Source of the DNA: Oculatellaceae cyanobacterium bins.114 | GTDB taxonomy: Bacteria; Cyanobacteriota; Cyanobacteriia; Elainellales; Elainellaceae | Direction of reading: 5' to 3' | NCBI GenBank assembly: GCA_033764315.1 | Contig: JANRJA010000011.1 | Coordinates: 1-64,000 of the forward strand | Length of the DNA stretch: 64,000 bases | Part shown: positions 16,790-38,494 of the stretch, piece after piece | Layout of the letters: the number at the start of each line of letters is the position of its first letter | Position numbering within the stretch: the first letter of the stretch is position 1 | The notes under the pieces: generated by a model | Database searches by the model: none | Seen by the model: the letters and a program-made list of their open reading frames with translations, nothing else | Told to the model about the DNA's origin: nothing | Position numbers and translations under genes: made by a program

Positions 16790-19700
16790 ATGCCAGCATT
16801 GTCTCCCCTGCTGAGATGGCTCAGCACTGGCGCTACTGTTCTAGGCTCGTTTAGCCTGTTGACCCAATCCACTGCACTGGCGCAGATTGTCCCAGACAAC
16901 ACATTGGGTAACGAGCCATCCAGAGTACGATCGGGGGTCACGCTTCGCGGACAGGTGGCTGATCAGATTGAGGGAGGGGCTGTTCGTGGGGCAAACCTGT
17001 TTCACAGCTTTAGTGACTTTGATGTAAACCAGGGACAGCGGGTTTACTTTGCCAACCCCACTGGTATTGACAACATTATCAGTCGTGTAACAGGGCGCAA
17101 CGTCTCAAATATTGATGGTCTGCTGGGGGTCGATGGGCTTGCCAATCTATTTCTGCTCAACCCCAATGGCATCATCTTCGGACCCAATGCCCAATTGGAT
17201 GTGAGTGGCTCCTTTACCGCCAGTACGGGCGATCGCTTCACCTTCCCCGATGGCAGTGAGTTCAGTGCCACCAATCCCCAGGCTCCGCCTCTGCTGACGG
17301 TGAGTGTGCCAATTGGGTTACAGTACGGTGCCGCACCAGAGGCGATCGCCAGTGAAGCAAACCTGAGTGCAGGTCAGGATCTGACCCTGTTTGGGGGGAA
17401 TTTGAACTTACAGGGACAACTGACTGCTGGAGAAACCTTGAGTTTAAATGCTCAAGAGCGTATACAGGTGCAATCTGGTAGTACCCTCTTCTCTGGTAGA
17501 GATACTGTGGTTCAATCACCAATTCGGTTATTGGGTGACGCTAACTATACAGTGGGTGGCTACTTTATCATCCAGGAACTGGATGGTACTCCCGTAGAGA
17601 GTTTGGATCCACGTAACAATACCAGCATTATTCGGACCAATGGGGACGTGACGTTGACGGGTGAGTATAGTGGTCCACCTCTCTTTATCTTGGCTGGTGG
17701 AAAAGTCCAGTTAAGTGGAGTATCAATTACGAGTTTTGGCATTACACGCGATATTTCTGATGGAACTGGTGGAAATCAAACGATTACCGTTAATCCCCAA
17801 CAAGCTCTTAGCGTGAGTAGCGGAGTTGATTGGGCAGCAGAGGGTGGATTAACTAGTGCCAACGAACCCGCTTCTTTAGGTGGAGCAAGTGTGACGTATG
17901 GCACTGCGACGGGTGGCAACCTGGATCTACAGGGACAACTTGCAACCAATGGAGAAAACATTGCGTTAACTGCGAGAGACAATATTGCATTAACTGTAGA
18001 TGGAACTTTGAACTTGCAGGGACAACTTCGAGCTGAAGGAACCTTGACTTTAGAGGCTCAAGGGGCGATCGCCAGTCAAGCGAACCTGAGTGCAGGTCAG
18101 GATCTAACCCTGAATGGGAGAAATTTGAACTTACTACAGGGACAACTGAATGCCACGGGGAATTTGACACTACAAGCGCAAAATACGCTTCAGATTCAAG
18201 ATAGTGAAACTCAGCCATTTCAAGCGACTGCGGGTAATCAGCTTCTCCTGCAAGGTGACCAGGCTGTTGATATCTCTCTCAACAATTATGGTAGTTCCTT
18301 GAACGCAGGTGGAGATCTAGTTTTACGGTCAACTAGTGGCAACATTAATATTAGTGGTGGTACGCTCAACTCCAGTTCGACTAACACTCCTGCTGGACAA
18401 ATTTCAATCAATGGACAGAATGTAACCTTAAGTAATACTGAAATTAACTCTAGGTCATCTTCTAGCACTGGTGGGCAGATAACTATTGCAGCCTCTGGTA
18501 ACGTTAGGATTAGTGATCGTTCCATTAACTCGACATCACAGGCTAGTTCGGGCGGACCCGTTTCAATTAGCGGTCAAAATGTAACTTTAGAGCGGGTTGG
18601 AATTGACACCGCATCTTTCGGAGGTAGTGGTGGCAGTGGCGGCGTTTCTATCACAGCTAATGGTGGCACCGCTAGGCTTTTAGGAGGAGATTCTCGCCCT
18701 ACTATTTATGCTGATAGCTTCAACAGTGATAGTGGTTCTTCTGGCGGAGACATTCGTATTGAAGCGGCGACTATTGATATAAGCGATTATGAACTAAATG
18801 CTGCGGTCAATTCTTCGGGTTCGGGTAGTGATATTATCCTGTCTGCCACTGGCAATATTCGTCTTGACAATAGTACCTTTACTACTGAAGTTCAGGCAGA
18901 AGCATCAGGTTCGGGCGGAGGTATTCAAATCAATGATGTAGGATCGCTCTCCCTGAACAATTCTATTCTCAGTGCCAGTACTGCAGGTGCGGGTGCTGCC
19001 GGACAAATCCGCATTGCTGCTAGAAACGATGTTACTTTAACTAATGGGTCTCAGATTCGCAGTAACGTTGAGACAGGGGCTTCTGGTCGAGGAGGAGACA
19101 TTCAAATCAATGCTCCCTCGCTCTCATTAACCTCTACACCATCGGAACCAAGTTCTCCACCACAACCCTCACAAATTTCTGCCAGCACGGCGGGCAGCGG
19201 AAATGCCGGTACAATTACCCTCGGCAGTGCGAACGATCCAATTGAGCAAATTACGATTTCGGGTAATGGCTCTGGAATTTTTGTAACGACTAATGATTAT
19301 TTGGACCCAACTGTTTCTACTTTTGGAGAACAAGATGATGTTGGTCAATTATTAAACAATGCTCGATTAATCACCGATGTTAGCCAAATTATTGGATCAT
19401 TAGAAAACCCAGATGATGTAGATCTCTACCGCATTGAGTTGAATGGTCAACCCTTTTCAGCAACCACTCAAGGCACAGTCGTTGATACACGATTGTTTCT
19501 TTTTGATCAACAAGGTTTGGGAGTTTATGCCAATGAAGACATCAGTGATAGTGATTTCAGTTCACGCCTGCCTGAGGACAACGCTCTGACCCCAACAGCT
19601 TCTGGGACATACTATCTGGCGGTAAGCAGTTATGGTAGATATCCGGTCAGTCCAAATGGGTCTATTTTTGGTCTTGAGTCTGCTGCGTTTACCGATGTAG

Positions 19701-22700
19701 TTGGTCGAACGGAACCTGGAGGTGGATCACGGTTAAATGACTGGCAGGGGAATGGTTTAGATTCGGGCAATTACACCATTCAACTTACGGGAGTCAATAG
19801 TCAAACGCCTCGTCCCCTCCCAGGTGGTGTGGGTGGTGTTATAAATGTCCACGCCAATTCTGTTAATGTTTTGGGTGGTGGAAGTTTTAGCGCTGAAACT
19901 CGTGGCAGTGGACCTGCGGGAAATCTTTCGATGACTGCTAATACAGTCACGTTACAAGGAAGTCGCATTACAGCCGCAGCAACGGGAAACAGTCCCACGT
20001 CGCGTGCAGGTAACGTCACCATAAATGCTCAAACAATAGACCTTTCAGATAACTCAGGAATCGTCACGATAAACAGTTCTTCAGCGGTTCCAGTAGCAGA
20101 GCGATCGCGCTTCGGTAACATCCAACTCGACAATGTCAACAATCTCACAGTTGCCAATAGCTTAATTGTCTCGAGAACTGAGAGTGGTGTGGCTGGTAGC
20201 GTTCAGATTAATGGTGGAACGGACAGCTCTGTCACCTTAAGTGGTGTTACAGGTGACTTGAACGGCGATGGGATCATCAACATTCTTGAAGGAGAAGGAG
20301 TTGGAGGTATCGTTACAACAGCAATTGCTGGTGGTCGTGCAGGTGATGTTCTTGTCAATACAAATCGATTATCCATTAGTAGCGATGCTCAAATCACTGC
20401 CAGTAATCGGACAACGGCAGGAAACGGCTCTGGTTCAGCAGGGAATGTAACAGTTTCAGCCAATACGATCACCCTCAATAATGGTGATATCGATGTGGAA
20501 ACGGAAGCGGGAGCGGGTGGTAATGTCATCATTACTGATCTCAATACCCTTAGCGCAACTAATGGTAGTAGTATTTCAACCAGCACCGGTACTGGCATTG
20601 CAGGGAGTATTCGCATTAATGAAGAACAACCTGCTGCATCCACCATTCAATTCACCGATAGTGCGCTGAGAGCTAATGCAGCCTCTGGTCAGGGTAATGC
20701 TGGGGATGTAACTGTAAATACGCAAGGTTTGACCGTGGAGCGATCGCGCATCTTAGCTCAAACCGTTTCTGGTACAGGTGGTGATATTACCCTGACAGGC
20801 TTAAGGGATTTAAGTGCCACGAATAGTCAAATTTCGGCCTCAACAGATAGTGGTATTGCGGGTAATGTGACAATCAATGCCACTGACTCAGTGGTGCTTA
20901 CGGGAAATGGTCCTCTCACCAATAGTGGCGACCCAAGCGATCGCCCAGGTATTTCTGTTCAAGCAAGAAATGGGGGGAATGCTGGAGATATTGCCATTAC
21001 TACCCCTACACTCACTGTTCAAAATGGTGCTCGTGTCTCAGCATCAACTGCTGGTAATAACGGGGGTGATCTGGGAGGCAGCATTACCGTTACAGCAGAT
21101 ACGGTCAGCCTGTTTGGGCAACCCAATGAATCTGATAGCCAGCGTACAGGGCTGTTTTCAGAGACGAATGGAGCAGCTAATGCGGGCGACCTTACCCTGC
21201 AACCTCTACCTGGTACGGGCGATCTCCAGATCAACTTTTCTAATGGAGCACAATTATCAGCCTTAACTAGGGGCAGCGGCGAGGGGGGAAATGTGTCAAT
21301 TATCGCTCCACAATCAGTAGCGATCGCGGGGAATGGCACCGTTTCGGTTGATACCCGCAACACTGGTCAGGGAGGAAGAATTGACATCAACGCACCCACC
21401 CTCACCATTCGAGACGGAGCCAGAGTTTCCACCTCCACAAGTGGTACGGGTGCGGGTGGGAAGATTAGGGTCACTGCGGATACCGTTAATCTGTCAGGAG
21501 CAACCACCGCCTTATCATCCAATACATCCAATACTGGCGCTGCTGGAACGCTTAACCTGATTCCTGCAACGGGGCGATCGCTCACGGTTAATTTTGAGGA
21601 TGGGGCACAACTGTCAGCCCGAACCACCGGGCAAGGGGAGGGCGGCAATGTCTTTTTAGGAGATGATCCGAGGATTGCCCCAGCACCGTTAGAGGCTATT
21701 TCGCTCCGAGGGAGAGGCAGTTTACAGGTGTCTGCTGAAGGAGGCGGAAATGCAGGTTTATTAGGAATCAATACCAATTTATTTAACCTTGGAACTGGAG
21801 TTCGTCTTGTAGCCAATTCAATTCGTAGTCGAGCTGGAGCGGTTGCGTTTCGCTCAGGAGACGTGTTTGTGATTGACTCTCGGATTGAAGCCTCAACATC
21901 ACTGAACTCTGCTGGGGGCATTATTGTTCAAGCCAATAGACGGGTTCAGCTCCGGGGCACGTTCCAGAATGACAATGGTACCGTTCTTCCAGCGGGGCTG
22001 TTTGTTGAGGGCGGTGCGAGCGGAGAAGCTGGATTTTTAACCATCACTACGCCCCGATTAATCATCGAAAATGGTGCTCAAGCCTCAGCTAGAGCCAGGG
22101 CAGGAAGGGGTGGCGGTGTTTCCGTAAATGCACATTCCATTGAGATCAACAGTCGTGGAGAGACCAGAACGCGCACAGGCATTCTTGCCAGTTCTACCTC
22201 TGGTACTGGCGGTAATATTCTTCTCTTTGGAGTGAATCAACTCAATCTCCAAGATGGAGTCATTTCTGCTGAAACACAAACGGGTGTTGCAGGCAATGTG
22301 CGAGTTAATGCAGCAGGTGGAACAGTGCAACTGAGGGGTAGCAGAACTCGGCTAACCGCAAGCGCGACAGGAGAGGGTGGACGAGCAGGTAATGTGGAGA
22401 TCATTGCTCGTCGCGTTAATGTGGAGAATGGAGCAAGATTGACGGCACAGGCAACTGGAAGACAAGGACGAGCAGGTAATGTGACGGTGACTGCTAGAGG
22501 GGGGAGCCTGACGGTGAGCGGTGGAGCTGAGTTAACCGTAAGGAATCGAGATGGGGTTGCAGGTAATCTCAGGATCAACGCAGGGACAGTTATTTTGAAC
22601 CGTGGCAACCTGATTGCGATCGCCGGACTGGGTGACAATGGCAATATTATAGTCACACAATCCGGTTTGTTATTCCGGCCTCAGAACAACAGTCGCATCT

Positions 22701-23350
22701 CAGCACAGGCGATCAACAGTGCTTCTGGGGGAACTGTTAGGTTAAATGTGCCAAATGGTTTTGTTTTAACCAACTATCTGGAGAATAACGATATTATTGC
22801 CAGTGCCTTAGGGGAGGGGGATGGCGGGAGTGTCCGGATTACTGCCCTGGGTATTTTTGGTTTAGAACAGCGCTCCGAAGAGACATCCTATAGCGATATT
22901 GTTGTCACCTCTCGATTTGGCACCGATGGTACGGTTGTGCTGGACACCTTAGGCGTTGACCCTACCCGAGGGCTGGCAGCCGTCCCCGAACTGGTTGACC
23001 CTAGCGATCAGGTGGATCAAGGTTGCGGAGCAGATGGTGCGATCGCCCAAACACAAAATCAACAGACGCAAAATCAATTTGTTGTCAGCGGACGGGGGGG
23101 ATTACCTGCACAACCCACCGGCAGTTTAACCCCCGATGCAATTACCGGTGATTGGGTATCTCTGGAAGGAACTGCTACCGAGCAAGCGACCGTACCCTCA
23201 TCCCGTGCAGAGCTTCAGGAGATGACAGAAATTGTGGAAGCACAGGGCTGGTCGGTTAGTGAAAAAGGGGATGTGATTCTGACTGCGCCTCCAACTGCAA
23301 CAGCTCCTTCCGATCAATTTAGCACTACTACCTGTCAATCATCCCTATGA
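16790..23350 (+). CDS. Large filamentous-haemagglutinin-family exoprotein (TPS/haemagglutination domain, beta-helix repeats, embedded PPC-like domain)
   Basis: AQIVPDNTLG, NLFHSF, NLFLLNPNGIIFG, many G.(A/G)G.I.I repeats, cyanobacterial C-tail GRGGLP...IVEAQGW. Confidence 0.92.
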   Translation: MPALSPLLRWLSTGATVLGSFSLLTQSTALAQIVPDNTLGNEPSRVRSGVTLRGQVADQIEGGAVRGANLFHSFSDFDVNQGQRVYFANPTGIDNIISRVTGRNVSNIDGLLGVDGLANLFLLNPNGIIFGPNAQLDVSGSFTASTGDRFTFPDGSEFSATNPQAPPLLTVSVPIGLQYGAAPEAIASEANLSAGQDLTLFGGNLNLQGQLTAGETLSLNAQERIQVQSGSTLFSGRDTVVQSPIRLLGDANYTVGGYFIIQELDGTPVESLDPRNNTSIIRTNGDVTLTGEYSGPPLFILAGGKVQLSGVSITSFGITRDISDGTGGNQTITVNPQQALSVSSGVDWAAEGGLTSANEPASLGGASVTYGTATGGNLDLQGQLATNGENIALTARDNIALTVDGTLNLQGQLRAEGTLTLEAQGAIASQANLSAGQDLTLNGRNLNLLQGQLNATGNLTLQAQNTLQIQDSETQPFQATAGNQLLLQGDQAVDISLNNYGSSLNAGGDLVLRSTSGNINISGGTLNSSSTNTPAGQISINGQNVTLSNTEINSRSSSSTGGQITIAASGNVRISDRSINSTSQASSGGPVSISGQNVTLERVGIDTASFGGSGGSGGVSITANGGTARLLGGDSRPTIYADSFNSDSGSSGGDIRIEAATIDISDYELNAAVNSSGSGSDIILSATGNIRLDNSTFTTEVQAEASGSGGGIQINDVGSLSLNNSILSASTAGAGAAGQIRIAARNDVTLTNGSQIRSNVETGASGRGGDIQINAPSLSLTSTPSEPSSPPQPSQISASTAGSGNAGTITLGSANDPIEQITISGNGSGIFVTTNDYLDPTVSTFGEQDDVGQLLNNARLITDVSQIIGSLENPDDVDLYRIELNGQPFSATTQGTVVDTRLFLFDQQGLGVYANEDISDSDFSSRLPEDNALTPTASGTYYLAVSSYGRYPVSPNGSIFGLESAAFTDVVGRTEPGGGSRLNDWQGNGLDSGNYTIQLTGVNSQTPRPLPGGVGGVINVHANSVNVLGGGSFSAETRGSGPAGNLSMTANTVTLQGSRITAAATGNSPTSRAGNVTINAQTIDLSDNSGIVTINSSSAVPVAERSRFGNIQLDNVNNLTVANSLIVSRTESGVAGSVQINGGTDSSVTLSGVTGDLNGDGIINILEGEGVGGIVTTAIAGGRAGDVLVNTNRLSISSDAQITASNRTTAGNGSGSAGNVTVSANTITLNNGDIDVETEAGAGGNVIITDLNTLSATNGSSISTSTGTGIAGSIRINEEQPAASTIQFTDSALRANAASGQGNAGDVTVNTQGLTVERSRILAQTVSGTGGDITLTGLRDLSATNSQISASTDSGIAGNVTINATDSVVLTGNGPLTNSGDPSDRPGISVQARNGGNAGDIAITTPTLTVQNGARVSASTAGNNGGDLGGSITVTADTVSLFGQPNESDSQRTGLFSETNGAANAGDLTLQPLPGTGDLQINFSNGAQLSALTRGSGEGGNVSIIAPQSVAIAGNGTVSVDTRNTGQGGRIDINAPTLTIRDGARVSTSTSGTGAGGKIRVTADTVNLSGATTALSSNTSNTGAAGTLNLIPATGRSLTVNFEDGAQLSARTTGQGEGGNVFLGDDPRIAPAPLEAISLRGRGSLQVSAEGGGNAGLLGINTNLFNLGTGVRLVANSIRSRAGAVAFRSGDVFVIDSRIEASTSLNSAGGIIVQANRRVQLRGTFQNDNGTVLPAGLFVEGGASGEAGFLTITTPRLIIENGAQASARARAGRGGGVSVNAHSIEINSRGETRTRTGILASSTSGTGGNILLFGVNQLNLQDGVISAETQTGVAGNVRVNAAGGTVQLRGSRTRLTASATGEGGRAGNVEIIARRVNVENGARLTAQATGRQGRAGNVTVTARGGSLTVSGGAELTVRNRDGVAGNLRINAGTVILNRGNLIAIAGLGDNGNIIVTQSGLLFRPQNNSRISAQAINSASGGTVRLNVPNGFVLTNYLENNDIIASALGEGDGGSVRITALGIFGLEQRSEETSYSDIVVTSRFGTDGTVVLDTLGVDPTRGLAAVPELVDPSDQVDQGCGADGAIAQTQNQQTQNQFVVSGRGGLPAQPTGSLTPDAITGDWVSLEGTATEQATVPSSRAELQEMTEIVEAQGWSVSEKGDVILTAPPTATAPSDQFSTTTCQSSL

Positions 23351-26061
23351 AGCTCCCAACCTCCCTCAGACGTGCTTTCGTTTTTCTGCTACTCGTCGCA
23401 TTGACTGCTGGGCTGTGCGGGATTGCCACTCCAGGATTGGCGCAACGCTCCGATCGCCAGGTTGCTGTTAATTTATCTGAGGTCAACCCACCCCTAGCGA
23501 CCCAACCAGCGTCTCTGCTCGACCAGGGGAAAGCTCTGTACGACGCAGAACAGTTCAGTCGAGCCGTACCCATTCTGCAACAGGCTGTACAAGAGGCACA
23601 AGCGAGAGGGAATAGACTGCAACAAGCGATCGCTCTCAGTAATTTATCCCTGACCTATCAACAACTGGGTGCCTGGGCGGAAGCGGAACAAGCACTGCAA
23701 CAAAGTTTAGGTTTGTTAGAACCACAACAAGCCACGGTTACAACACAGCAACTCTCGGTGCTGGCACAAACGCTGAATGTGCAGGCACGGTTGCAGTTGG
23801 GGCAAGGACAGGCACAAGCTGCTCTAGAAACCTGGGAACGTACTGCAATGCTGTATCAGCAGTTGGAGAATACAACTGGGGTAGTTCAGAGCCGGATTAA
23901 TCAATCGCAAGCATTGCGATCACTGGGGTTTTATAATCGAGCGATCGCCACACTCACAGACATTCAGAGACTCCTCGAATCTAGTGCCGATTCCCTGGAT
24001 AAAGCAGTGGCACTTCGTAGTTTAGGAGATGCGTTGCGGGTTTCGGGCACACTGGACAAATCCTATGAACAACTAGAACAGAGTTTACAGATTGCTCAGG
24101 CGATTGGAGAGGCTAAGGCGATCGCGGCAGCACAAATTAGTTTGGCAAACACACGGCAAGCTCAGGCATCAGAGATTAACTTAGACGTAGCAGACCGCAC
24201 TGATCAGGAGCGTGTTCGCCAATGGCGCGGTGAAGCCCTTCAGCGTTATCAGTCTGTGGTGGAAACCCGTCCATCCCTGCCACTGTTGATGGTGGTACAG
24301 GCACAATTGAATCAACTTAATCTGTTAATTTCAATGGAGCGTATTGCTGAGGCAGTACGGCTGATACCTGCGATTCAAACCCAGTTAAACCAACTACCCT
24401 CCAGTCGAGCGGCGATCGATGCTCAAGTAAATTTTGCTCACAGTTTGATCGATCTGAAGCCAGGTGCTACTGTTACGCCTGCTGAATTACCTTCAGTACT
24501 GGATATTGCTAACGGGTTATCTACTGCTTATCAACAGGCAATTCAATTGAACGATCAACGAGCCATTTCCTATGTTTTGGGAACGTTGGGGTATCTTTAC
24601 GAACAATCAGAGCAATTCAGCGATGCCAAACCATTAACCCAACAAGCGATGATCCTATCGCAGTCCATTCAGGCCGATGATTTGAGCTATCGCTGGCAAT
24701 GGCAACTGGGGCGGATGGTGAAGTTGGAGAATCAGCAGAGTGAGGCGATCGCCCTGTATAGCGAAGCGTACAACAGTCTACAACGGGTTCGCAATGACCT
24801 GATTGCAGCCAACCCGGATCTCCAGTTTTCCTTCCGCAACGACGTAGAACCGATTTACCGGGATCTGGTTGATTTGTTGCTGCAAAAAGCCCCCCAGGTT
24901 TTCAAGCCGAAAGAGAAGCAAGCGATTCTAGGACAGGCTCGATCGATTATCGACTCGTTGCGGGTGGCAGAATTGCAAAACTTCTTTCGGGCAGCCTGTC
25001 TAGATGCCACCTCGCAAATTGATGCGATCATTAACGAGCAAACCCCAACCGCGGCAGTGATTTATCCGATCCTGTTGCGCGATCGCCTGGAAATCATCCT
25101 GAAGCTGGCTGGAACGGATCTGATGCAGTATACACTGCCCGCTTCATCTGAAGCTGAGATCACCCAGGTTCTCAAAACATTTCGCCGTGAGTTGCAAGAA
25201 CCCTATACCTTCCGTTCGACTAAAGAAATTGGACAGCAGGTTTACAATTGGTTAGTTCAACCAATGCGTGATGAGTTGGATCGACGGGGTATTAAAACAC
25301 TGATCTTTGTACTGGATGGCGCACTGCGAAATATCCCCATGAGTGCGCTTTATGATGGTAACCATTATTTGATCGAGAACTTTGCAGTTTCGCTGGAACT
25401 GGGTCTGACCATTCGCAATCCGCTTCCCTTAAGGCGCAATGCGATGCGAATTCTGGCGGCAGGGCTGGTGAATCCTCCCCCCACTGCCAGCACCTACGCC
25501 CAGTTACCCAATGTTACAACAGAATTAGATTTCATTAGCTCGTTAGGCTTACCCGCTACGATCCTGCGCGATACCGAATTCACGAAACCACTGTTTAAAC
25601 AGTCCCTCCAGCAGGCAAACCCCCAGGTCATCCATCTGGCAACCCACGGGCAGTTTGGTGTGAATCCCGAAGATACCTTCATTCTGTATGCGGACGGGAA
25701 AGTACCCCTCAATCAATTAGCCGATCTGTTTAAGACGGAACAACGGGGGCGATCGCGTGCGGTTGAACTGCTGGTGTTGAGTGCCTGCCGTACCGCAACG
25801 GGGGATAGTCGTACCGTTCTGGGGATTGCCGGAACCGCTGTTGAAGCAGGGGCGCGGAGTGCGATCGCCTCACTCTGGAGCTTAAACGATGCGGCTACGG
25901 TTCCCGTCATTGAGGAACTCTATCGCCATCTGGGGCAGGAGGGTGTCACCCGTGCTGAGGCTCTGCGACAGGCGCAACTGAAATTGCTGCAAGAGCCAGA
26001 GGGCCTCTATACCCATCCCCGCTACTGGTCGCCCTATGTGCTGGTGGGTAGTTGGCTTTAG
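23347..26061 (+). CDS. TPR + CHAT (caspase-like) domain protein with N-terminal signal/TM segment
   Basis: TPR repeats; catalytic HLATHG and VLSAC intact; ASLW, HPRYW; ATGA overlap with the haemagglutinin gene. Confidence 0.93.
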   Translation: MKLPTSLRRAFVFLLLVALTAGLCGIATPGLAQRSDRQVAVNLSEVNPPLATQPASLLDQGKALYDAEQFSRAVPILQQAVQEAQARGNRLQQAIALSNLSLTYQQLGAWAEAEQALQQSLGLLEPQQATVTTQQLSVLAQTLNVQARLQLGQGQAQAALETWERTAMLYQQLENTTGVVQSRINQSQALRSLGFYNRAIATLTDIQRLLESSADSLDKAVALRSLGDALRVSGTLDKSYEQLEQSLQIAQAIGEAKAIAAAQISLANTRQAQASEINLDVADRTDQERVRQWRGEALQRYQSVVETRPSLPLLMVVQAQLNQLNLLISMERIAEAVRLIPAIQTQLNQLPSSRAAIDAQVNFAHSLIDLKPGATVTPAELPSVLDIANGLSTAYQQAIQLNDQRAISYVLGTLGYLYEQSEQFSDAKPLTQQAMILSQSIQADDLSYRWQWQLGRMVKLENQQSEAIALYSEAYNSLQRVRNDLIAANPDLQFSFRNDVEPIYRDLVDLLLQKAPQVFKPKEKQAILGQARSIIDSLRVAELQNFFRAACLDATSQIDAIINEQTPTAAVIYPILLRDRLEIILKLAGTDLMQYTLPASSEAEITQVLKTFRRELQEPYTFRSTKEIGQQVYNWLVQPMRDELDRRGIKTLIFVLDGALRNIPMSALYDGNHYLIENFAVSLELGLTIRNPLPLRRNAMRILAAGLVNPPPTASTYAQLPNVTTELDFISSLGLPATILRDTEFTKPLFKQSLQQANPQVIHLATHGQFGVNPEDTFILYADGKVPLNQLADLFKTEQRGRSRAVELLVLSACRTATGDSRTVLGIAGTAVEAGARSAIASLWSLNDAATVPVIEELYRHLGQEGVTRAEALRQAQLKLLQEPEGLYTHPRYWSPYVLVGSWL

Positions 26062-26288
26062 AACAGGTCAGTATTGGCAACTAAAGTTGTCCCGCTTATA
26101 TCACTCTCTTAGATAAGAACAGAACCAAACATGGTCAGGTTATTCTCGTTGCTGAATCAACGACGGAAGCGATCGCACCAGCAGCGTTACAGAATCCAGG
26201 GCGGTGTTCAGTTGCCGTAGCCCCCAACCCTCTGTCTCATTAACCAGCCTCAACGTTAACCACTCTCAATGCAATTCTGGCAATGAAC

Positions 26289-27047
26289 TCACCGGGAACT
26301 CACTGGCGTTAATTCGGGAATCGCTTGTTGCGAAATGCCTTCTAACTCATACGCTCCCAGGATGCGTGACCATAGGGGTTGCAGACTGCGATCGCTAGAA
26401 TAATCAGCCAGACTTGCTAAAGCGTCATACCAGGCATTTTCGGCTTCGTAGGCGCGGTAGTGTGACGGCCCTGGCAACACCCGCAACTTTAACGCCAGGT
26501 TATCACTCGGTGCAGTCCGTTGAATCCAACCGCTAATGACTGGATTGCGCGAGGGTTCTTCTGCGTCACAGATGATTGAGAAATACCAGTTATATCGCTG
26601 ATTTGTGGCTAAAGGGGGTGCTGTTTCAGGGAGCCTAAACTGCACTAGACCAATCGTCTCTGGCAACGTGACTCGAATGGGACGGTCGATCGCGTAGTTT
26701 TGTTGATCATCCAGCAGCATGAACTCGGCATAGGCCATCTGAGGCGATCGCGCAAAAGGTACGTAAAACAAGAAGGTTGGATAATCTTGCGTGGTTGAAC
26801 CCACCCCATCAGGCGGCACGAATGCAAACAAAGGCTGGTTACTTACTGGGGCACTACATCCATCATCGCGAATCGATGCTCCCTCACCAGTCCCTCGTCT
26901 TGGGGCTTCACGATTTCGACGACCAAATAAAAGGTCGAAAAGCCCTGCCTGCGCGGGGGGAGTGAGCGTTAGCACTAGCATTGAACTAATGCTAAAAACC
27001 ACTATCCATCCTAAACAGCGTTGTATTAATCGAGTTTGCCAGATCAC
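26289..27047 (-). CDS. DUF928 domain protein, secreted
   Basis: Signal peptide, GASIR..C, T...YPTF.FYVP, Y.WYFSIIC, WYDAL. Confidence 0.88.
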   Translation of the reverse strand: MIWQTRLIQRCLGWIVVFSISSMLVLTLTPPAQAGLFDLLFGRRNREAPRRGTGEGASIRDDGCSAPVSNQPLFAFVPPDGVGSTTQDYPTFLFYVPFARSPQMAYAEFMLLDDQQNYAIDRPIRVTLPETIGLVQFRLPETAPPLATNQRYNWYFSIICDAEEPSRNPVISGWIQRTAPSDNLALKLRVLPGPSHYRAYEAENAWYDALASLADYSSDRSLQPLWSRILGAYELEGISQQAIPELTPVSSR

Positions 27048-27191
27048 AAAACGACTCTAGAGAATATATACACAACAGCCTTATAAAATGGGTCGGGAGG
27101 AGTCTTAAAGATTGAATTGGAATAACCATACCATGCGTTACTAGAAATTGCTGTATACGCCTCACAACGTTTAGCATTCACACCTAATGCG

Positions 27192-30100
27192 TTACCAGGG
27201 ATTGCGAATGCGATAGCTGAGATAGGCAACGCCCGCTCCAGATATCACAAAGGCGATCGCCCCTGGAACTAACGGCATCCATCCACTAGAAACAATAAAA
27301 ATGCCATAGCAACTGCCCACCAATAGCACAAACGCTCCCGTTGTTGCTAAGCACAAATGAATGGGTCTAACCAACCCCCAAAATACCAATCCACCCGTGA
27401 TTGACCAGCCCAAGATCCACAACAGTTCGCCCTCCATCGACATCCACCAGATCAACGGTCGTTGATCCAAAACAGTGCTAATTAATTGACTGATCATTTG
27501 TCCCTGGAGAAACACACCTGCAATTCGCCCATGAGGAGAGAACCAAACATCGGCATTGCGATCGCTGGTGTCAGTGTAACCAATCAAAACAATGCGATCG
27601 CGGATACATTCAGCCGCAACTTTGTTTTGCAACACGTCAGCCAATGTCACCGTATCGGCAAAGGTTTCAACTGGATTGTCAGAAAGTTTGGCAGAGGGTT
27701 GAGCAACACAAGAAGACAATTGAGTGCGATCGCCTACGCGATAATTCAACATGAGTTGATACCCACCCAGCAATGGATCAAGAGGAGAATACCCACTGCC
27801 ATCTCCTCTAAGCAGGGGAATGGGTGTTTCCCCAAAGCGCATAACCCCATCAGATGACGGCTCGTCCGGATGAATAAAGGGTTTGTTGAGTGCATCTAGA
27901 TACCGCCGCACCAAAACTAAGCTAAACGATTGGTCTGTATTGCAAAACTCTGGATCAGCAGAGCTAATCAGCAATTGCCGACGCACAAGGCGATTGGTTC
28001 CATCTGCAAGGGCGTTTGCAAATCCAATGGATTCAAGGTCAGTAATAGTGCGATTGGGGATACCGTCTGTAGGATTGCCTTGATTATCCCATGCTCTAGA
28101 TAAGCAATTGCCGATGATGTTGGGGGAATTGGCCAGGCGATCGCGCAAAATGGGTTCTGCAGGAAAATCACGATAAAAATCTAGCCCAATGAGCCGGGGT
28201 TGGTGAGATTCTAAAATCTTGAGCACATCATTAAGGGCAGCATCAGGAATGGTACCAATACCGGGTTGATAGACTCTATTAATCATCTGTTCGCGTAACA
28301 GAGAGCCGCTAGAACTATCAACTTTGACAATGAGTAGATGTGGGTCGAGCGGTTCAACCGGGCGCAGTTGCACGAAGCTGTCATATGCCCTCAGCTCTAG
28401 TGGTTGCAGGAAACCTAGCACACGAGCGATCGCCACTAAAATCATGGCTGCCACACTAGTGAACAATGCAGACCGCAACTTGATTTTACGAAATGGTAAC
28501 GCTTGACTGGCTTGGATATAATCTTGTTGCAAAGGGGTGAGTTTAGGCTCTTTTGTTTCAGCGATCGCCAGCCACTCCATAGCTGTTTTTAGTGGTTTCC
28601 CACGCAACAACAAATCATCATCTCGATTAGACTGTACCCATTCCTTCGCTTTGACAAGCAATCGTGTATGCAACTGCACATATTCCGGATCACTTGCGAG
28701 TAAGCGAATGAGTTCACCAAAACTTTTCAGCAAATCATCTTGATGATCTCTAAAATCAATCCATTGAATCGTGCTCAGCACAGGCGGTAACTCATGAGGA
28801 GGAACATCCTGATATAAAACTGTCACCAGTCGTTTGTTAAGCGACACAGCGTAGTTCAGTTGATCTAAGCAATCGGTTGACTGAATAGAATTTGGAGAGA
28901 TCACAAACAAAAAATTATCCGAGTTCTCAATTCCCTGTTGAATCGCAAGTTGAGAATCCTGCCCACTCTCCAGGCTCTCTTGAGCAAACCAGGTTCCCAT
29001 GCCCTGAAGTTGCAAGTTGTCATTAAATTTGCGAACAAATTCAATATCTAGGGGTGAATAGCCAATGAAGACATTAAAGGTTTGGTCGTGGGGTTGTTGT
29101 TGGCTTGCTTCAATAAATTCTTGGTGGATTGGCAGCGGAGCAAATTGAGGGTGATGAACGGCTTCCTTTAACCAGGCTTCTGCTTGCCGTAAGTAACTTC
29201 CTTGTAACAAAATGCTAGGGTTGTCGTACTGATATTCCCATTTCAAGGCTCGAACGAGCAGAAGTTTATGTTGTCTATGGTAGTTCTCATTTTGCCGTAA
29301 CGTATTCAGCAGTTGAGCTTCACAAGTGTGGTAATTGTCTTCACTGATCACAGTGGTGAGGTCAATATATTGCAAGTCATGCAAGGCAAAAGGAACATGA
29401 TTCATGTCAACTAAACGCAACAACAACGGCACAATCCGTTTGTTGAGTTGATGTGCATACTCAATTTCCATCTGGCAATATTCTGATTGCAATGAATCGG
29501 ATGACATTAAGTAAACTAAGTTGTCAGATTGCTCAATTCCCCGTCGCAATGCTCTGGTAAAGTCTTCCCCAATTTGAATATCAGTACTGGTAGACCATAC
29601 TGTGATCCCCTGATATCGAAGTGAATGACGTACCTTCTCCATAATTTCCCGATCTTCATTCGCATAAGAGAGAAAAACTTGAGTCATCAAATTTTGCTCG
29701 TTTTTGATGCTCTCAGTAATGAATTCGGCGTGTAGTTCGGTGGGGTTGCATGGGGCTTGTTCTCCCTTAAATCGAGTCTTAAGCCATGCTTCTGCTAACT
29801 CCAACTCTTTCCCTGTAAGTAAATCATGAGTTTTACGGTGATGACGGCTCCAACTTAAGGCTTTTGATAACAATACGGTGTGGTGATACACATAGGATTG
29901 GTGACGCTCTAAAGCTGACTTCAAATTTGTCAAGGCAGCGTCAAAACCATCCACTTCATTCTGAAAATTGACCCAGTTGATACTTTGAATGGCTGGATGC
30001 ATATTGGGATAACTGGAGTGCAAACCCCTAGCTCTGTAATCCTCCCATTGCTCATCTGTACCATTGGGATTACGCTGTCGCCAGATTTCTTGATTGATTT

Positions 30101-30419
30101 GCTCAACGTGTAGCAGTGGAATGATACGTTTGTTGTATTTGAGTGCAAGCTCAATCTCTAATTGACAGTAGACAGAGTTAACAGAGTGCGGTGAAATAAC
30201 AAATAGAAAGTTTTTAGAGCGTTCAATCCCGTCCTTGATCTGTTCCTGAAAATCGACTGCAACTGGAATATCGTTAAGATCTAACCAAATGTTGTACCCT
30301 GCTATGGCTAGTTGACTATACAGCTTTAAGGCAAACGCTTTGCTGTCTAACCTGCCATAGGAAATAAAAACATCAAAAAGCGCGTGTGAGTTTGCCGAGA
30401 TTAATATGTCGTCTTCCAT
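27192..30419 (-). CDS. Triple TIR-domain + CHASE2 membrane protein
   Basis: Three DVFISY/VFLSY/VFIGY...FVISP.S..S..C..(E/Q) TIR units, each followed by an LL.RALxW...LL.G..L..AE.WL helical unit; then a TM helix; CHASE2 (LEL.AYD, IGLDFYRD, DRIVLIG, G.F.Q.QM.SQ); then 3 TM helices. Confidence 0.88.
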   Translation of the reverse strand: MEDDILISANSHALFDVFISYGRLDSKAFALKLYSQLAIAGYNIWLDLNDIPVAVDFQEQIKDGIERSKNFLFVISPHSVNSVYCQLEIELALKYNKRIIPLLHVEQINQEIWRQRNPNGTDEQWEDYRARGLHSSYPNMHPAIQSINWVNFQNEVDGFDAALTNLKSALERHQSYVYHHTVLLSKALSWSRHHRKTHDLLTGKELELAEAWLKTRFKGEQAPCNPTELHAEFITESIKNEQNLMTQVFLSYANEDREIMEKVRHSLRYQGITVWSTSTDIQIGEDFTRALRRGIEQSDNLVYLMSSDSLQSEYCQMEIEYAHQLNKRIVPLLLRLVDMNHVPFALHDLQYIDLTTVISEDNYHTCEAQLLNTLRQNENYHRQHKLLLVRALKWEYQYDNPSILLQGSYLRQAEAWLKEAVHHPQFAPLPIHQEFIEASQQQPHDQTFNVFIGYSPLDIEFVRKFNDNLQLQGMGTWFAQESLESGQDSQLAIQQGIENSDNFLFVISPNSIQSTDCLDQLNYAVSLNKRLVTVLYQDVPPHELPPVLSTIQWIDFRDHQDDLLKSFGELIRLLASDPEYVQLHTRLLVKAKEWVQSNRDDDLLLRGKPLKTAMEWLAIAETKEPKLTPLQQDYIQASQALPFRKIKLRSALFTSVAAMILVAIARVLGFLQPLELRAYDSFVQLRPVEPLDPHLLIVKVDSSSGSLLREQMINRVYQPGIGTIPDAALNDVLKILESHQPRLIGLDFYRDFPAEPILRDRLANSPNIIGNCLSRAWDNQGNPTDGIPNRTITDLESIGFANALADGTNRLVRRQLLISSADPEFCNTDQSFSLVLVRRYLDALNKPFIHPDEPSSDGVMRFGETPIPLLRGDGSGYSPLDPLLGGYQLMLNYRVGDRTQLSSCVAQPSAKLSDNPVETFADTVTLADVLQNKVAAECIRDRIVLIGYTDTSDRNADVWFSPHGRIAGVFLQGQMISQLISTVLDQRPLIWWMSMEGELLWILGWSITGGLVFWGLVRPIHLCLATTGAFVLLVGSCYGIFIVSSGWMPLVPGAIAFVISGAGVAYLSYRIRNPW

Positions 30420-30649
30420 AGTCGTGAGGGAGCTAGAGTTTTAAGAATATCACTATCTATTTATGACGAGAGGAAAATTACTGGTGATATTCAGGAAACT
30501 CTGTTTATAGATGTAGCGATCACCCTTTGACCTCCATTAATGGAACTTTGACCTCCATCTGTCATTCCCATACAGATGGCAATCTAGAGGATAAGAATGC
30601 TAGTTGTCTGAATGTGCGTGCACTAGGACAGCCGCTGATGAGACTTTCT

Positions 30650-30820
30650 ATCAGTGCATCTTCTATGGCTCCCAAGGCTTTGAGCGTTGCTTTTTGAGTT
30701 TCAGTAATACCCTTTACTCTAGTGATATTCATCCCTTCATAGGGGCGATCGCTCCTCAATGTCTTTATGCACTCTCCCCGATTTAGATCCCAAAGCCAGA
30801 TAGTTTCATCATCGCTACTC
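30650..30820 (-). pseudogene. C-terminal fragment of a WD40-repeat (NB-ARC/NACHT-WD40 type) gene
   Basis: SSDDETIWLWDLNRGECIKTLRSDRPYEGMNIT..KG.TE.QKATLKALGA is the typical tail of cyanobacterial STAND-WD40 proteins; the rest of the gene is missing. Confidence 0.8.
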
Positions 30821-30879
30821 TTCAATTAGAACTATTTGAAATCAATCGAGCTGTACTTGGGGTATAAAAAACGGCTATT

Positions 30880-31440
30880 TTGACTATTTCGGATGATGAC
30901 ACGCCCAGTTCTCCGAGCACTTACAACATTCCTGGATCTCCAAATACACCTGAAACTCCTAGCAATCCCGTTACTCGAATGGGTAATGCTCGTAGCGATC
31001 GCCTGCTTGGTACATCAGTCAATGAGGTTTTGGTTGGGTTGCGTGGCAACGATACAGTCCAGGGGGACGTTGGTGCAGATACACTGATTGGGGTTGACCC
31101 CAATACTCGGAAACCCGGTGTGTGTGAACGCGATGTATTGATGGGCAACGAAGGAGCCAATGTGTTTGTTTTGGGGAACGCTCAATCCGTTTTCTACAAC
31201 GATGGCAACCGTGCAACAGTAGGATTGCAAGACTACGCCTTAATTAAGGACTTCAATGCCAGCAGCGATCGCATTCAATTACACGGACGCCGATCCAACT
31301 ACCATCTTGGTGCTGCTCCACAGGGAACACCAAAAGGAATTGGCATCTTTTTGGAGAACGGCAGAACGGATGAGTTAATTGCGATCGCACAAGGACAGCG
31401 AAATCTGCGACTCACCAATTCTACATTTCAGTTTGTTTGA
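30880..31440 (+). pseudogene. Probable 3' fragment of a Calx-beta/RTX Ca-binding exoprotein
   Basis: Begins LTISDDD (end of a Calx-beta unit), Pro-rich linker, G..GND repeats, DYALIKDF...DRIQL.G, DELIAI tail; TTG start with no signal. Confidence 0.6.
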
Positions 31441-31509
31441 TCAGACGATTCACAGTTGCTCAGGGTCAACCCCCATGTCTCGCAGCTTATTGGCTAAGGC
31501 TTGCGATCG
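31381..31509 (+). repeat. 129-bp direct repeat, copy 2, running from one HIP1 site to the next
   Basis: GCGATCGC at 31381 and 31503; matches 16475-16603. Confidence 0.9.
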
Positions 31510-32166
31510 CTGTCGTTCCTGCTCTAGCTGCTGTTCTGCCTGCTCAGCTCGTTGATGCTCCTGCTCAGCTCGTTGACGCTCTTGTTCAGCCTGTTGCGCG
31601 ATCTCAACATAACTCAAAAATCGCTTTCCATCAGGTCGGTAGAGTTGCAGTTCACTCCCTGTTAAATCAAAGCGAATTTGCAATCGGGGGCTGACCCACT
31701 GATCGATCGGATCGATCACATCCAAGCCTTCACTCCCCCGCAACCAACCACTCAAATCTCGATGCTTAGGGTCATACAGGTAATATTCCTCAACGCCATG
31801 ACGGTTGTAAAAAACCTGTTTCTTATTCATCTCGGTTAAACGATTGCTGGGTGAGAGAATCTCAAACACCACTTGAGGAGCAATCCCATCCTCTACCCAT
31901 TGTTTGTAAGATCCTCGATAGCCCTTCGATCTACCAAACACCACCAGCACGTCAGGAGCCATGCAAATCGTGTTACTTCCCTCAACGGGATACCACAACA
32001 AATCTCCTGCCACAAAAACGGCTGGGTTGTCAGCAAACAGCCACTCCAAATTCTGCTGAATCACCACGATCCAGCGAAACTGCTCCGTATTATCCGCCAT
32101 TGGCTGACCGTCGCTATCAGGATAAATAACCTCTGATTGAGCAGAGGGCTGTAGCTGAGAAACCAT
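31450..32166 (-). CDS. Uma2 family (DUF820) endonuclease-fold protein with coiled-coil tail
   Basis: YPDSDGQPMADNT, APDV, VVFEILSPSN, GVEEYYLYDP, QERQRAEQ repeats. Confidence 0.92.
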   Translation of the reverse strand: MVSQLQPSAQSEVIYPDSDGQPMADNTEQFRWIVVIQQNLEWLFADNPAVFVAGDLLWYPVEGSNTICMAPDVLVVFGRSKGYRGSYKQWVEDGIAPQVVFEILSPSNRLTEMNKKQVFYNRHGVEEYYLYDPKHRDLSGWLRGSEGLDVIDPIDQWVSPRLQIRFDLTGSELQLYRPDGKRFLSYVEIAQQAEQERQRAEQEHQRAEQAEQQLEQERQRSQALANKLRDMGVDPEQL

Positions 32167-32331
32167 ACTCTCAACCTCACTAGAAATAGTGTTGCCGGGT
32201 AATCCTTGAAAGTGGAGTATGTCACACAAAGTACGACACATCTTCACTGCAAGAATTACCCATTATGTTTAACCTAGCACAGGGTTTAACTTAGCACAGA
32301 GACATGAACGAAGCCTGTTGTGCGATCGCCC

Positions 32332-37892: not shown

Positions 37893-38468
37893 TTATTCTC
37901 CAGCTTTCAAGACTTGCTCAGGCGTCAGCATTAATTCTGGAAATACAGTTGAGCGGATGGGTTCAGCACCTTTGAACACCGCATCTTCATACAACCCATT
38001 GACCAGCGTCAAGACCGTCACAATGGCTCTTTCAGGATCGACAATCCAATATTCTGCGATCCCTCTAGCCGCGTACTCAGAGCGTTTGTAACGGTAGTCT
38101 CGCTCCTGATTTTGCGTTCCTGGCGACACCACTTCAACTACCAAGTTTGGAGGCGGCATGTCGACTGTAATCGTTGCTCTAGCAGTGCCTTGTAGTAACT
38201 CTACCAGTTCATCAGAAATGACCATTAAATCTGGCATGCGAGTCGTCGCACGGGTTCCTAAAACGACAATTTCAGTCTTATTACTCAAACGGTTAACCGG
38301 AACAAACCGCAGGAATTGTACCAGCAAAAATAGGGCAATTTGAGAGTTATTCCAACTTTCAGGTGGCATAGCAACCAGTTCCCCTGCCACCAATTCATAT
38401 CGCGTATCGGTGCCATCATCATAATTCAGGTATTCCTGAAGAGTCAGCCGTTTAATGGTGGTTGCCAT
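37893..38468 (-). CDS. Uma2 family protein
   Basis: YELV.GEL..MPPES, R.PDL, LVVEVVSPG, RDYRYKRSEYAARGIAEYWIVDP. Confidence 0.92.
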   Translation of the reverse strand: MATTIKRLTLQEYLNYDDGTDTRYELVAGELVAMPPESWNNSQIALFLLVQFLRFVPVNRLSNKTEIVVLGTRATTRMPDLMVISDELVELLQGTARATITVDMPPPNLVVEVVSPGTQNQERDYRYKRSEYAARGIAEYWIVDPERAIVTVLTLVNGLYEDAVFKGAEPIRSTVFPELMLTPEQVLKAGE

Positions 38469-38494
38469 CACTGCTCCGGGGTAACGCCATGCGT

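Follow-up and report, generated by a model that had tools for sequence, protein, structure and literature searches.

A cyanobacterial receptor-like protein with three tandem TIR domains, an outside-facing CHASE2 sensor and recurring exported neighbours

Described TIR and CHASE2 systems and the protein encoded here

In Toll and the Toll-like receptors (TLRs) of animals an extracytoplasmic sensor is joined through a membrane span to a cytoplasmic TIR domain, and Drosophila Toll is served by the Spaetzle protease cascade. Here we describe a cyanobacterial gene whose product has a comparable layout. The stretch analysed (the window) comprises the 64,000 nucleotides at positions 1 to 64,000 of contig JANRJA010000011.1 (assembly GCA_033764315.1, Oculatellaceae cyanobacterium bins.114), and the gene encodes three N-terminal TIR domains, a transmembrane (TM) helix, a CHASE2 domain and three further TM helices (TIRx3-TM-CHASE2-3TM). 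Our analysis supports well its membership of a widespread family of TIR-output receptors in cyanobacteria, apparently undescribed so far; no description of the TIR-CHASE2 fusion was found in the open PMC and bioRxiv literature, subscription journals being outside the scope of the search.

The resemblance to TLRs is one of layout only, and common descent of the whole receptors is without support. TLRs have a leucine-rich repeat (LRR) ectodomain, cross the membrane once as type I proteins and carry the TIR domain at their C terminus, whereas the window protein has a CHASE2 ectodomain and no LRR family at E <= 0.1, its TIR domains are N-terminal and threefold, it has four TM helices, and the first two TIR domains (TIR1 and TIR2) contain the glutamate of the NAD+-cleaving TIR enzymes (NADases). 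An exported protease and a small exported protein encoded beside the receptor gene offer a parallel to Toll that is possible only.

We compared the protein with the TIR NADases SARM1/TIR-1, AbTir, Thoeris ThsB, SPARTA TIR-APAZ, Cat1 and SpbK. These enzymes are triggered intracellularly, by phage proteins, cyclic nucleotides, guide-target duplexes or the NMN/NAD ratio. The window protein is like them in fold and in the Glu at the aligned catalytic position, but unlike them it is a membrane receptor with an outside sensor, it has three TIR domains per chain with helical spacers, and it has no ThsA-like partner. It also falls outside the Thoeris definition, in that the NCBIfam model ThcB4, whose cut-off is 220 bits, reached 68.5, the neighbours include no SIR2, SLOG or Macro domain, and no Thoeris model matched in 12 neighbouring genes.

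On the sensor side, CyaK and CyaD1/D2 of Sinorhizobium meliloti are systems that we take to carry CHASE2. Together with NsrA these inner-membrane receptor cyclases respond to an outside signal, reported as peptidic, that acts via an outer-membrane protein (PMC7529298). Like the window protein they are inner-membrane receptors that respond to an outside signal, but their output is cAMP, their host is a proteobacterium and they have no TIR domain. Closer in domain order are the CHASE2 receptors with N-terminal outputs, which include a Ser/Thr kinase placed N-terminal to CHASE2 (PMC2176072), EACC2-caspase-CHASE2 proteins with a variable C-terminus (PMC8195603) and a metacaspase-CHASE2 protein in Trichodesmium (PMC2853523). 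They share the order output-TM-CHASE2-3TM, and caspase and TIR are both 'death-type' effectors, TIR having been described as an effector in conflict systems (PMC7159879); the difference is that the output here is TIRx3. The preliminary description of this locus had taken CHASE2 normally to feed cyclases or kinases, a statement that needs qualifying, since N-terminal outputs have been published and occur in 6 of the 14 CHASE2 genes of this genome, so that the architecture is not exceptional.

A further group of relatives consists of cyanobacterial TIRx3-WD40 proteins, which contain a homologous TIRx3 block (50-55% identity, same spacers) but have a cytoplasmic WD40 propeller as C-terminal partner. 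The TIR-CHASE2 protein combines known kinds, namely CHASE2 receptors with N-terminal effectors and bacterial TIR effectors, and does not constitute a new category.

Architecture, TIR folds and conservation of the catalytic-position glutamate

The open reading frame (ORF) starts at an ATG preceded by just 7 in-frame codons and then a stop. Pfam matched TIR_2 (PF13676) in three stretches (E 8.1e-79, 262.5 bits against a cut-off of 28), TIR (PF01582; 87 bits against a cut-off of 21.3) and CHASE2 (PF05226) at residues 658-1011 (E 2.1e-48, 165.5 bits against a cut-off of 26.3, profile positions 2-257 of 257). No other Pfam family was found in the 1075-aa protein at E <= 0.1, and on this ground a C-terminal cyclase or kinase is absent, as the preliminary description had proposed. 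Hydropathy placed a single TM segment near residues 651-672 and a hydrophobic block of 70 residues at 999-1068. An AlphaFold2 model of the receptor, made from a 77-sequence alignment (mean pLDDT 86.1, pTM 0.61), contains three TIR units, each with a spacer of three helices behind it, and an alpha/beta domain at 692-992 flanked by helices at 648-667, 995-1015, 1019-1044 and 1050-1072. Pfam, hydropathy and model thus agree on the order of parts that had been read from the letters alone (Table 1). Four Lys/Arg residues precede TM1 and two stand at the C-terminal end of the receptor, a placement that, together with the layout of the TM segments, fits a topology with the N terminus inside and CHASE2 outside; on this reading the TIR units and CHASE2 would lie on opposite sides of the membrane, and the earlier proposal, that TIR domains in the cytoplasm form the output of a CHASE2 sensor lying outside it, is supported by architecture and predicted topology alike.

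Table 1. Coordinates of the receptor gene, its parts and its neighbours, with related genes at other loci (positions are those of the window unless a contig or locus is given).
Feature	Position	Strand	Description	Evidence
TIRx3-TM-CHASE2-3TM receptor gene	27192..30419	-	ATG start, 1075 aa	ORF list, translation, Pfam, AlphaFold2 model
TIR1	29904..30380	-	residues 14-172; conserved insertion of ~45 residues; Glu88 codon GAG at 30156-30158	Pfam, VIA-align
Helical spacer 1	29691..29903	-	residues 173-243; model helices 174-192, 203-213, 228-241	no Pfam family
TIR2	29289..29690	-	residues 244-377; Glu318 codon at 29466-29468	Pfam best stretch 248-359
Helical spacer 2	29085..29288	-	residues 378-445; model helices 378-396, 407-420, 430-440	
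TIR3	28686..29084	-	residues 446-578; Gln520 (CAA, 28860-28862) at the catalytic-Glu position	third Pfam stretch
Helical spacer 3	28479..28685	-	residues 579-647, runs into TM1; model helices 578-596, 607-620, 629-643	
TM1	28404..28478	-	residues 648-672; model helix 648-667	Kyte-Doolittle peak 2.17
CHASE2 domain, predicted extracytoplasmic	27438..28403	-	residues 673-994	Pfam, domain model
Three C-terminal TM helices	27204..27437	-	residues 995-1072	hydropathy, AlphaFold2 helices
DUF928 gene	26289..27047	-	252 aa; 144 nt downstream of receptor, same strand	Pfam E 1.3e-42
TPR-CHAT (caspase-fold) protease gene, putatively exported	23347..26061	+	904 aa; convergent with DUF928 gene	Pfam CHAT E 2.2e-55, TPR
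Two-partner-secretion (TPS; TpsA-type) exoprotein gene	16790..23350	+	2186 aa; stop overlaps CHAT start	Pfam TPS E 1.1e-47
WD40-gene remnant	30562..30825	-	87-aa stop-to-stop frame directly upstream of receptor; reads as a C-terminal WD40 tail	
ORF with RTX calcium-binding repeat	30880..31440	+	186 aa, start uncertain; divergent to receptor	Pfam E 1.3e-07
Uma2-family gene (putative restriction endonuclease-like)	31450..32247	-		PADLOC PDC-S03
Uma2-family gene (putative restriction endonuclease-like)	37893..38471	-		PADLOC PDC-S03, E 1.4e-82
TIRx3-CHASE2, DUF928 and TPS/CHAT cluster	C213:3616-13047 (locus L110)		all on one strand	
TIRx3-TM-Cache/PDC-like-TM gene	C141:34754-37837 (L109:6755-9838)		1027 aa	
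TPR protein genes of 350-435 aa	L004:5836-6945, L006:9148-10209, L007:14497-15657, L009:6389-7522, L011:14296-15603		next to five-TIR TIR-CHASE2 genes	
DUF4231/SLATT-like two-TM region fused to phage-type lysozyme	L038:8601-9884	-	after DUF928 at a Coleofasciculaceae TIR-CHASE2 locus	

All three N-terminal units have TIR folds, as anticipated. In VIA-align comparisons of the model, TIR2 (243-376) matched Hydra TRR-2 at Z 20.1 (rmsd 2.1, 126 residues aligned) and the SARM1 TIR domain at Z 18.8, TIR1 (9-172) matched C. elegans TIR-1 at Z 16.8, and TIR3 (446-595) matched TRAM at Z 13.8 and a SEFIR domain at Z 13.9. Other likenesses in fold were to MyD88 (Z 18.7) among animal TIR domains and to ThsB (Z 14.5) and Cat1 (Z 13.7) among NADases. 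Foldseek concurred, with TM-scores on the target of up to 0.89, and of 0.73-0.75 for SARM1 and AbTir. TIR1 alone has the insertion listed in Table 1 (residues ~104-150), which contains several Trp, Arg and Gly residues invariant across 77 three-TIR homologues. A protein-atlas look-up of the helical spacer at residues 560-647 gave scores of <= 0.79, which is chance level.

The motifs at the catalytic position are CQLEIE in TIR1, CQMEIE in TIR2 and CLDQLN in TIR3, and the Glu column aligns with the Glu of the Cat1 TIR domain, which bears out the Glu/Glu/Gln pattern noted from the letters. The arrangement expected of a TIR NADase, a Glu at the catalytic position in the helix after the 'S..S..C..E' stretch, is thus present at E88 and E318 and absent from TIR3, which has Q520. 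In an alignment of the 77 three-TIR homologues the Glu is kept in TIR1 by all 77, in TIR2 by 74 and in TIR3 by 60, position 520 otherwise being occupied by Gln (13 sequences), Ala (2), Lys (1) or Val (1). On a FastTree phylogeny computed from this alignment after removal of the catalytic columns, the Glu was never lost from TIR1, was lost independently three times from TIR2, and was lost at least six times (the number that starred branches force) and up to nine times from TIR3. The invariance in TIR1 and near-invariance in TIR2 fit an enzyme rather than a pure adaptor, and the gradient along the chain fits catalysis by the distal units with a more structural role for the membrane-proximal TIR3. 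The preliminary description had cast TIR3 as a scaffold; this is reasonable as a tendency of the family, but a domain that keeps its Glu in 60 of 77 homologues and has lost it repeatedly does not have the role as a fixed feature.

Family, paralogues and history of the TIR block

A survey of how frequent the fusion is and what its neighbours are had been suggested, and both parts proved informative. When 5.8 billion clustered proteins were searched, 1002 of the 8000 candidates scored matched at E <= 0.001. Of the best 120 matches, the query included, 114 had Pfam TIR and CHASE2 content and the other six were TIR-WD40 proteins. The named organisms among the matches listed are all cyanobacterial (Trichormus, Anabaena, Nostoc, Calothrix, Coleofasciculus, Lyngbya, Leptolyngbya, Prochlorothrix and others), and the proteins are labelled in their sources as 'TIR domain-containing protein', 'CHASE2 domain-containing sensor protein' or, wrongly, 'histidine kinase'. 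They fall into two length classes, one of about 1045 aa with three TIR domains and one of about 1500 aa, in one member of which five TIR starts were counted by eye. Among 400 other genomes sampled from the phylum, at least 5 contain a full-length match, a lower bound because scoring was limited to the top two candidates in each genome.

In its own genome the receptor is one of 14 CHASE2 proteins. Six of these have N-terminal outputs (one Ser/Thr kinase, three CHAT-like and two TIRx3), six have C-terminal outputs (one GGDEF, two cyclases, two hybrid kinases and one Ser/Thr kinase) and two have no recognised output. The second TIRx3-CHASE2 gene lies on contig C213 and encodes a protein of 1053 aa with 46% identity to the window copy (contig C81) in which the TIR3 Glu is kept. 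A 67%-identical homologue from elsewhere (P0002) has the same architecture and the same TIR3 Gln as the window copy. On contig C141 a TIR block of 54% identity is joined to a Cache/PDC-like sensor between TM segments (Table 1), MCP-like_PDC_1 passing its cut-off (29.9 bits against 27) and dCache_1 remaining below it (33.4 bits against 45). The same TIR block therefore fronts two kinds of outside-facing sensor in one genome, CHASE2 in the C81 and C213 copies and a Cache-like domain in the C141 protein.

The preliminary description had also remarked that the motif HIP1 (GCGATCGC) seemed to be missing from the TIR-coding part while several copies lay in the CHASE2 part, and had taken this as a hint of module swapping. 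The observation holds, with no HIP1 between 28569 and 30744 and seven in 27192-28568, but the gap of 2184 nt ranks third in size among the window's 121 gaps, and given how densely the motif occurs in the window 1.9 gaps of such size are expected; among ORFs of 600 aa or more, 4.3% lack HIP1 altogether. The TIR part is lower in GC content (0.40-0.44), and the difference from the CHASE2 part lies mainly at codon position 2 (0.316 against 0.436) rather than at position 3 (0.419 against 0.452; genome mean 0.479, sd 0.057, the TIR part standing at the 12th percentile of the genome's long ORFs), so that the drop reflects amino-acid make-up. The C213 paralogue shows the opposite HIP1 pattern, with four in its TIR part and two in its CHASE2 part.

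In a tree of 68 TIRx3 blocks (IQ-TREE, quick search) 49 WD40-linked blocks form one starred clade nested among CHASE2-linked blocks, and the fusion-partner label changes only twice, against 14.5 times in shuffles, none of 500 shuffles being as low. The window block is placed among the CHASE2-linked ones, although its exact place is unsure because its end branch is long (0.91; paralogue 0.52, median 0.11). On these four counts (an unremarkable gap, a drop in GC at codon position 2, the opposite pattern in the paralogue and only two partner changes) we reject a recent module swap in this gene; the history of the family apparently includes a rare partner exchange, from CHASE2 to WD40. Directly upstream of the receptor gene lies the remnant of a WD40 gene (Table 1), with no WD40 repeats upstream of it.

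Exported proteins encoded beside the receptor

The best clue to the input of the receptor is its conserved neighbours, the DUF928 protein, the TPR-CHAT protease and the TPS exoprotein, which the preliminary description had passed over. N-terminal signal peptides were read by eye in all three, which would put them in the compartment of CHASE2. An alignment of 18 DUF928 proteins shows an Arg/Gly-rich stretch right after the signal peptide, and the CHAT domain in the window retains its His and Cys motifs (HLATHG and LSACRT). No terminator-like site was seen in the gap between the receptor and DUF928 genes; a scan of 26000-31000 for promoters and terminators gave counts at or below the level of shuffled sequence and was not informative.

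We surveyed 73 related loci, 17 of which have a TIR-CHASE2 gene, 12 of these with at least 2.5 kb of flank. In the three-TIR class (seven loci with flank) DUF928 lies directly downstream in all seven, CHAT is present in six and TPS in five. In the five-TIR class (five loci with flank) CHAT is present in three and TPS or TPS-CHAT in four, and DUF928 is directly downstream in none. In all five of the latter the next gene overlaps the end of the TIR-CHASE2 gene and encodes, in the place of DUF928, an exported TPR protein of 350-435 aa. These proteins have C-terminal TPRs and, by eye, a signal peptide and an Arg/Gly-rich stretch; they show no Pfam DUF928 match and score <= 8.3 bits against a profile of the DUF928 alignment. 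TPS and CHAT form a single ORF in L006 and L009.

In the genome of the window the association of CHASE2 with DUF928 extends beyond TIR outputs: a DUF928 gene lies within 3 kb of 7 of the 14 CHASE2 genes regardless of the output they carry, and a CHASE2 gene stands no farther than this from 8 of the 12 DUF928 matches. The paralogue on C213 heads a cluster on one strand, followed after 20 nt by DUF928 and after a further 127 nt by a 1781-aa ORF with an N-terminal TPS and a C-terminal CHAT domain, a fusion from which we take CHAT to be cargo of two-partner secretion; a NACHT-domain gene lies about 4 kb upstream of this cluster. ShlB genes accompany the CHASE2 modules on contigs C113 and C215. The window itself contains the adjacent DUF928 gene together with CHAT and TPS, and has no TpsB gene in the cluster. 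The DUF4231/SLATT-like protein fused to a phage-type lysozyme (Table 1) was seen once; SLATT domains are predicted to respond to nucleotide signals (PMC7159879). A cluster of two WD40 genes, a CHASE2 gene and a DUF928 gene has been reported in Nostoc punctiforme (PMC5587647).

A proposed outside-in mechanism and its alternatives

The explanation that we favour, at about even confidence, is that of an outside-in receptor in which CHASE2 gates NAD+ cleavage by the cytoplasmic TIR domains and is itself probably gated by the exported partners. The protein would sit in the inner membrane, its periplasmic CHASE2 domain held by one TM helix on the N-terminal side and three on the C-terminal side, while the three tandem TIR domains, each with its three-helix spacer, would hang from TM1 into the cytoplasm. 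Binding of a ligand to CHASE2 may alter how the TM bundle packs or oligomerises, and this change would bring together or release the TIR arrays into head-to-tail assemblies of the kind that switch on TIR NADases. TIR1 and TIR2 would do the chemistry, with TIR3 mainly a membrane-proximal structural unit. The output would be cleavage of NAD+, leading either to depletion and thereby growth arrest or death, or to a signal derived from ADP-ribose. The genes nearby include no ThsA-like or other nucleotide-sensing partner (of the SIR2, SLOG, Macro or STING kind), for which reason direct depletion is mildly favoured over a relay; should the TIR domains signal rather than deplete, the receiver would have to be encoded elsewhere. 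The input would come from the exported neighbours, and the most attractive candidate ligand is DUF928 processed by the secreted CHAT protease. The peptidic signal reported for the S. meliloti cyclases (PMC7529298) is in keeping with this proposal.

By analogy with Toll and Spaetzle this last step can be made more specific, at the price of becoming rather improbable: CHAT, delivered to the cell surface by two-partner secretion, might in response to an event at the envelope cleave DUF928 at its Arg/Gly-rich stretch, the product might be the ligand of CHASE2, and the TIR domains would then cleave NAD+.

Several observations weigh against the favoured explanation. A conserved Glu is necessary for TIR catalysis but not sufficient, and four positions before it a Tyr stands where the Cat1 TIR domain has Trp, leaving no basis for a guess at the reaction product. 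With its long end branch, the window's TIR block may be drifting. Modelled alone, the CHASE2 domain is predicted with confidence (pLDDT 88.7, pTM 0.91), yet among 48,161 representative solved chains its best match was the C-terminal domain of a Mur ligase at Z 5.0, with none higher, a null result that does not prove a new fold; with no better match among solved folds, the model gives no lead to a ligand. Regarding the partners, DUF928 is not universal beside TIR-CHASE2 genes, being undetected at the five loci of the five-TIR class, and locus L007 has none of DUF928, CHAT and TPS within 10 kb. There is no TpsB (ShlB/FhaC) gene on contig C81 or C213, the six ShlB matches lying elsewhere in the genome, and adjacency of genes alone is weak evidence of binding.

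The alternative that survives best, which we nevertheless consider unlikely, is that the receptor is an adaptor or scaffold, its TIR domains nucleating homotypic TIR-TIR assemblies with soluble TIRx3-WD40 proteins that relay the signal, much as TLRs do with MyD88 or TRIF. The genome does encode such a protein (contig C241, 1379 aa) with a TIR block 51% identical to that of the window, and the TIRx3 block is mostly fused to WD40, in 34 of 36 cases among the tails listed (of 45). The WD40 remnant just upstream of the receptor, the TIRx3-WD40 genes that adjoin CHAT and TPS genes in L025, L028, L031 and L011, the Nostoc punctiforme cluster mentioned above and the resemblance of TIR3 to adaptor TIR domains and SEFIR all point the same way. 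The near-complete retention of the Glu in TIR1 and TIR2 is, on the other hand, hard to explain for a pure scaffold, and the best structural matches of these two units include the NADases SARM1 and TIR-1. The adaptor model and the favoured enzyme model are not mutually exclusive.

We regard as improbable, to a somewhat greater degree, that the receptor serves anti-phage abortive infection, sensing attack by phage at the envelope (through adsorption, damage to the envelope or a periplasmic phage product) and killing the cell through NAD+ depletion, with the exported neighbours being incidental. Known bacterial TIR NADases are defence effectors. Many PADLOC defence-system models, Argonaute-associated TIR, ThsB and SAVED-TIR among them, match the TIR units with E values as low as 2e-31; TIR models for Thoeris and retrons in NCBIfam match as well. 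The PADLOC matches are, however, confined to the TIR units and below cut-off, and the NCBIfam defence matches likewise cover the TIR part only and fall far under their cut-offs (81 against 600 and 68.5 against 220). Apart from the Uma2-type matches to PDC-S03 (Table 1), a scan of 12 neighbours brought up no gene of a known defence system, and the rest of the window is housekeeping (mfd, uvrC and an NDH subunit). The partners that recur at other loci form an exported cassette and are not defence genes, and the matches listed come from one phylum only, unlike mobile defence genes.

That the window copy is a redundant paralogue losing its function while the C213 copy does the work is very improbable, for although its long TIR-block branch, the change of its TIR3 Glu to Gln where the paralogue keeps Glu, the low GC at codon position 2 in its TIR part and the gene remnant next door could suggest decay, it has an intact frame of 1075 aa and a confident model, it keeps the Glu of TIR1 and TIR2, its own DUF928, CHAT and TPS genes are intact, and the Gln is shared by P0002 in the same architecture, so that this state has been inherited and maintained.

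If the outside-in receptor that we favour exists, its TIR array on an outside-facing sensor would be a new form of control of NAD+ cleavage, the bacterial TIR enzymes studied so far being, to our knowledge, all switched on from inside the cell, and it would be the closest bacterial parallel in layout to the Toll-like receptors. If the more specific Toll-Spaetzle-like reading were true, a filamentous cyanobacterial cell would arrest, kill itself or signal upon an event outside the cell, and extracellular proteolytic activation of a TIR receptor would have arisen independently of animals. Filamentous cyanobacteria, genetically tractable strains among them, commonly have members of the family, which makes testing feasible, and homologues are named from Trichormus variabilis, Anabaena and Nostoc. 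The receptor would also give a handle on the old question of what CHASE2 senses, with loss of NAD+ or growth arrest as an easy readout and DUF928, CHAT and the TPS exoprotein as candidate inputs.

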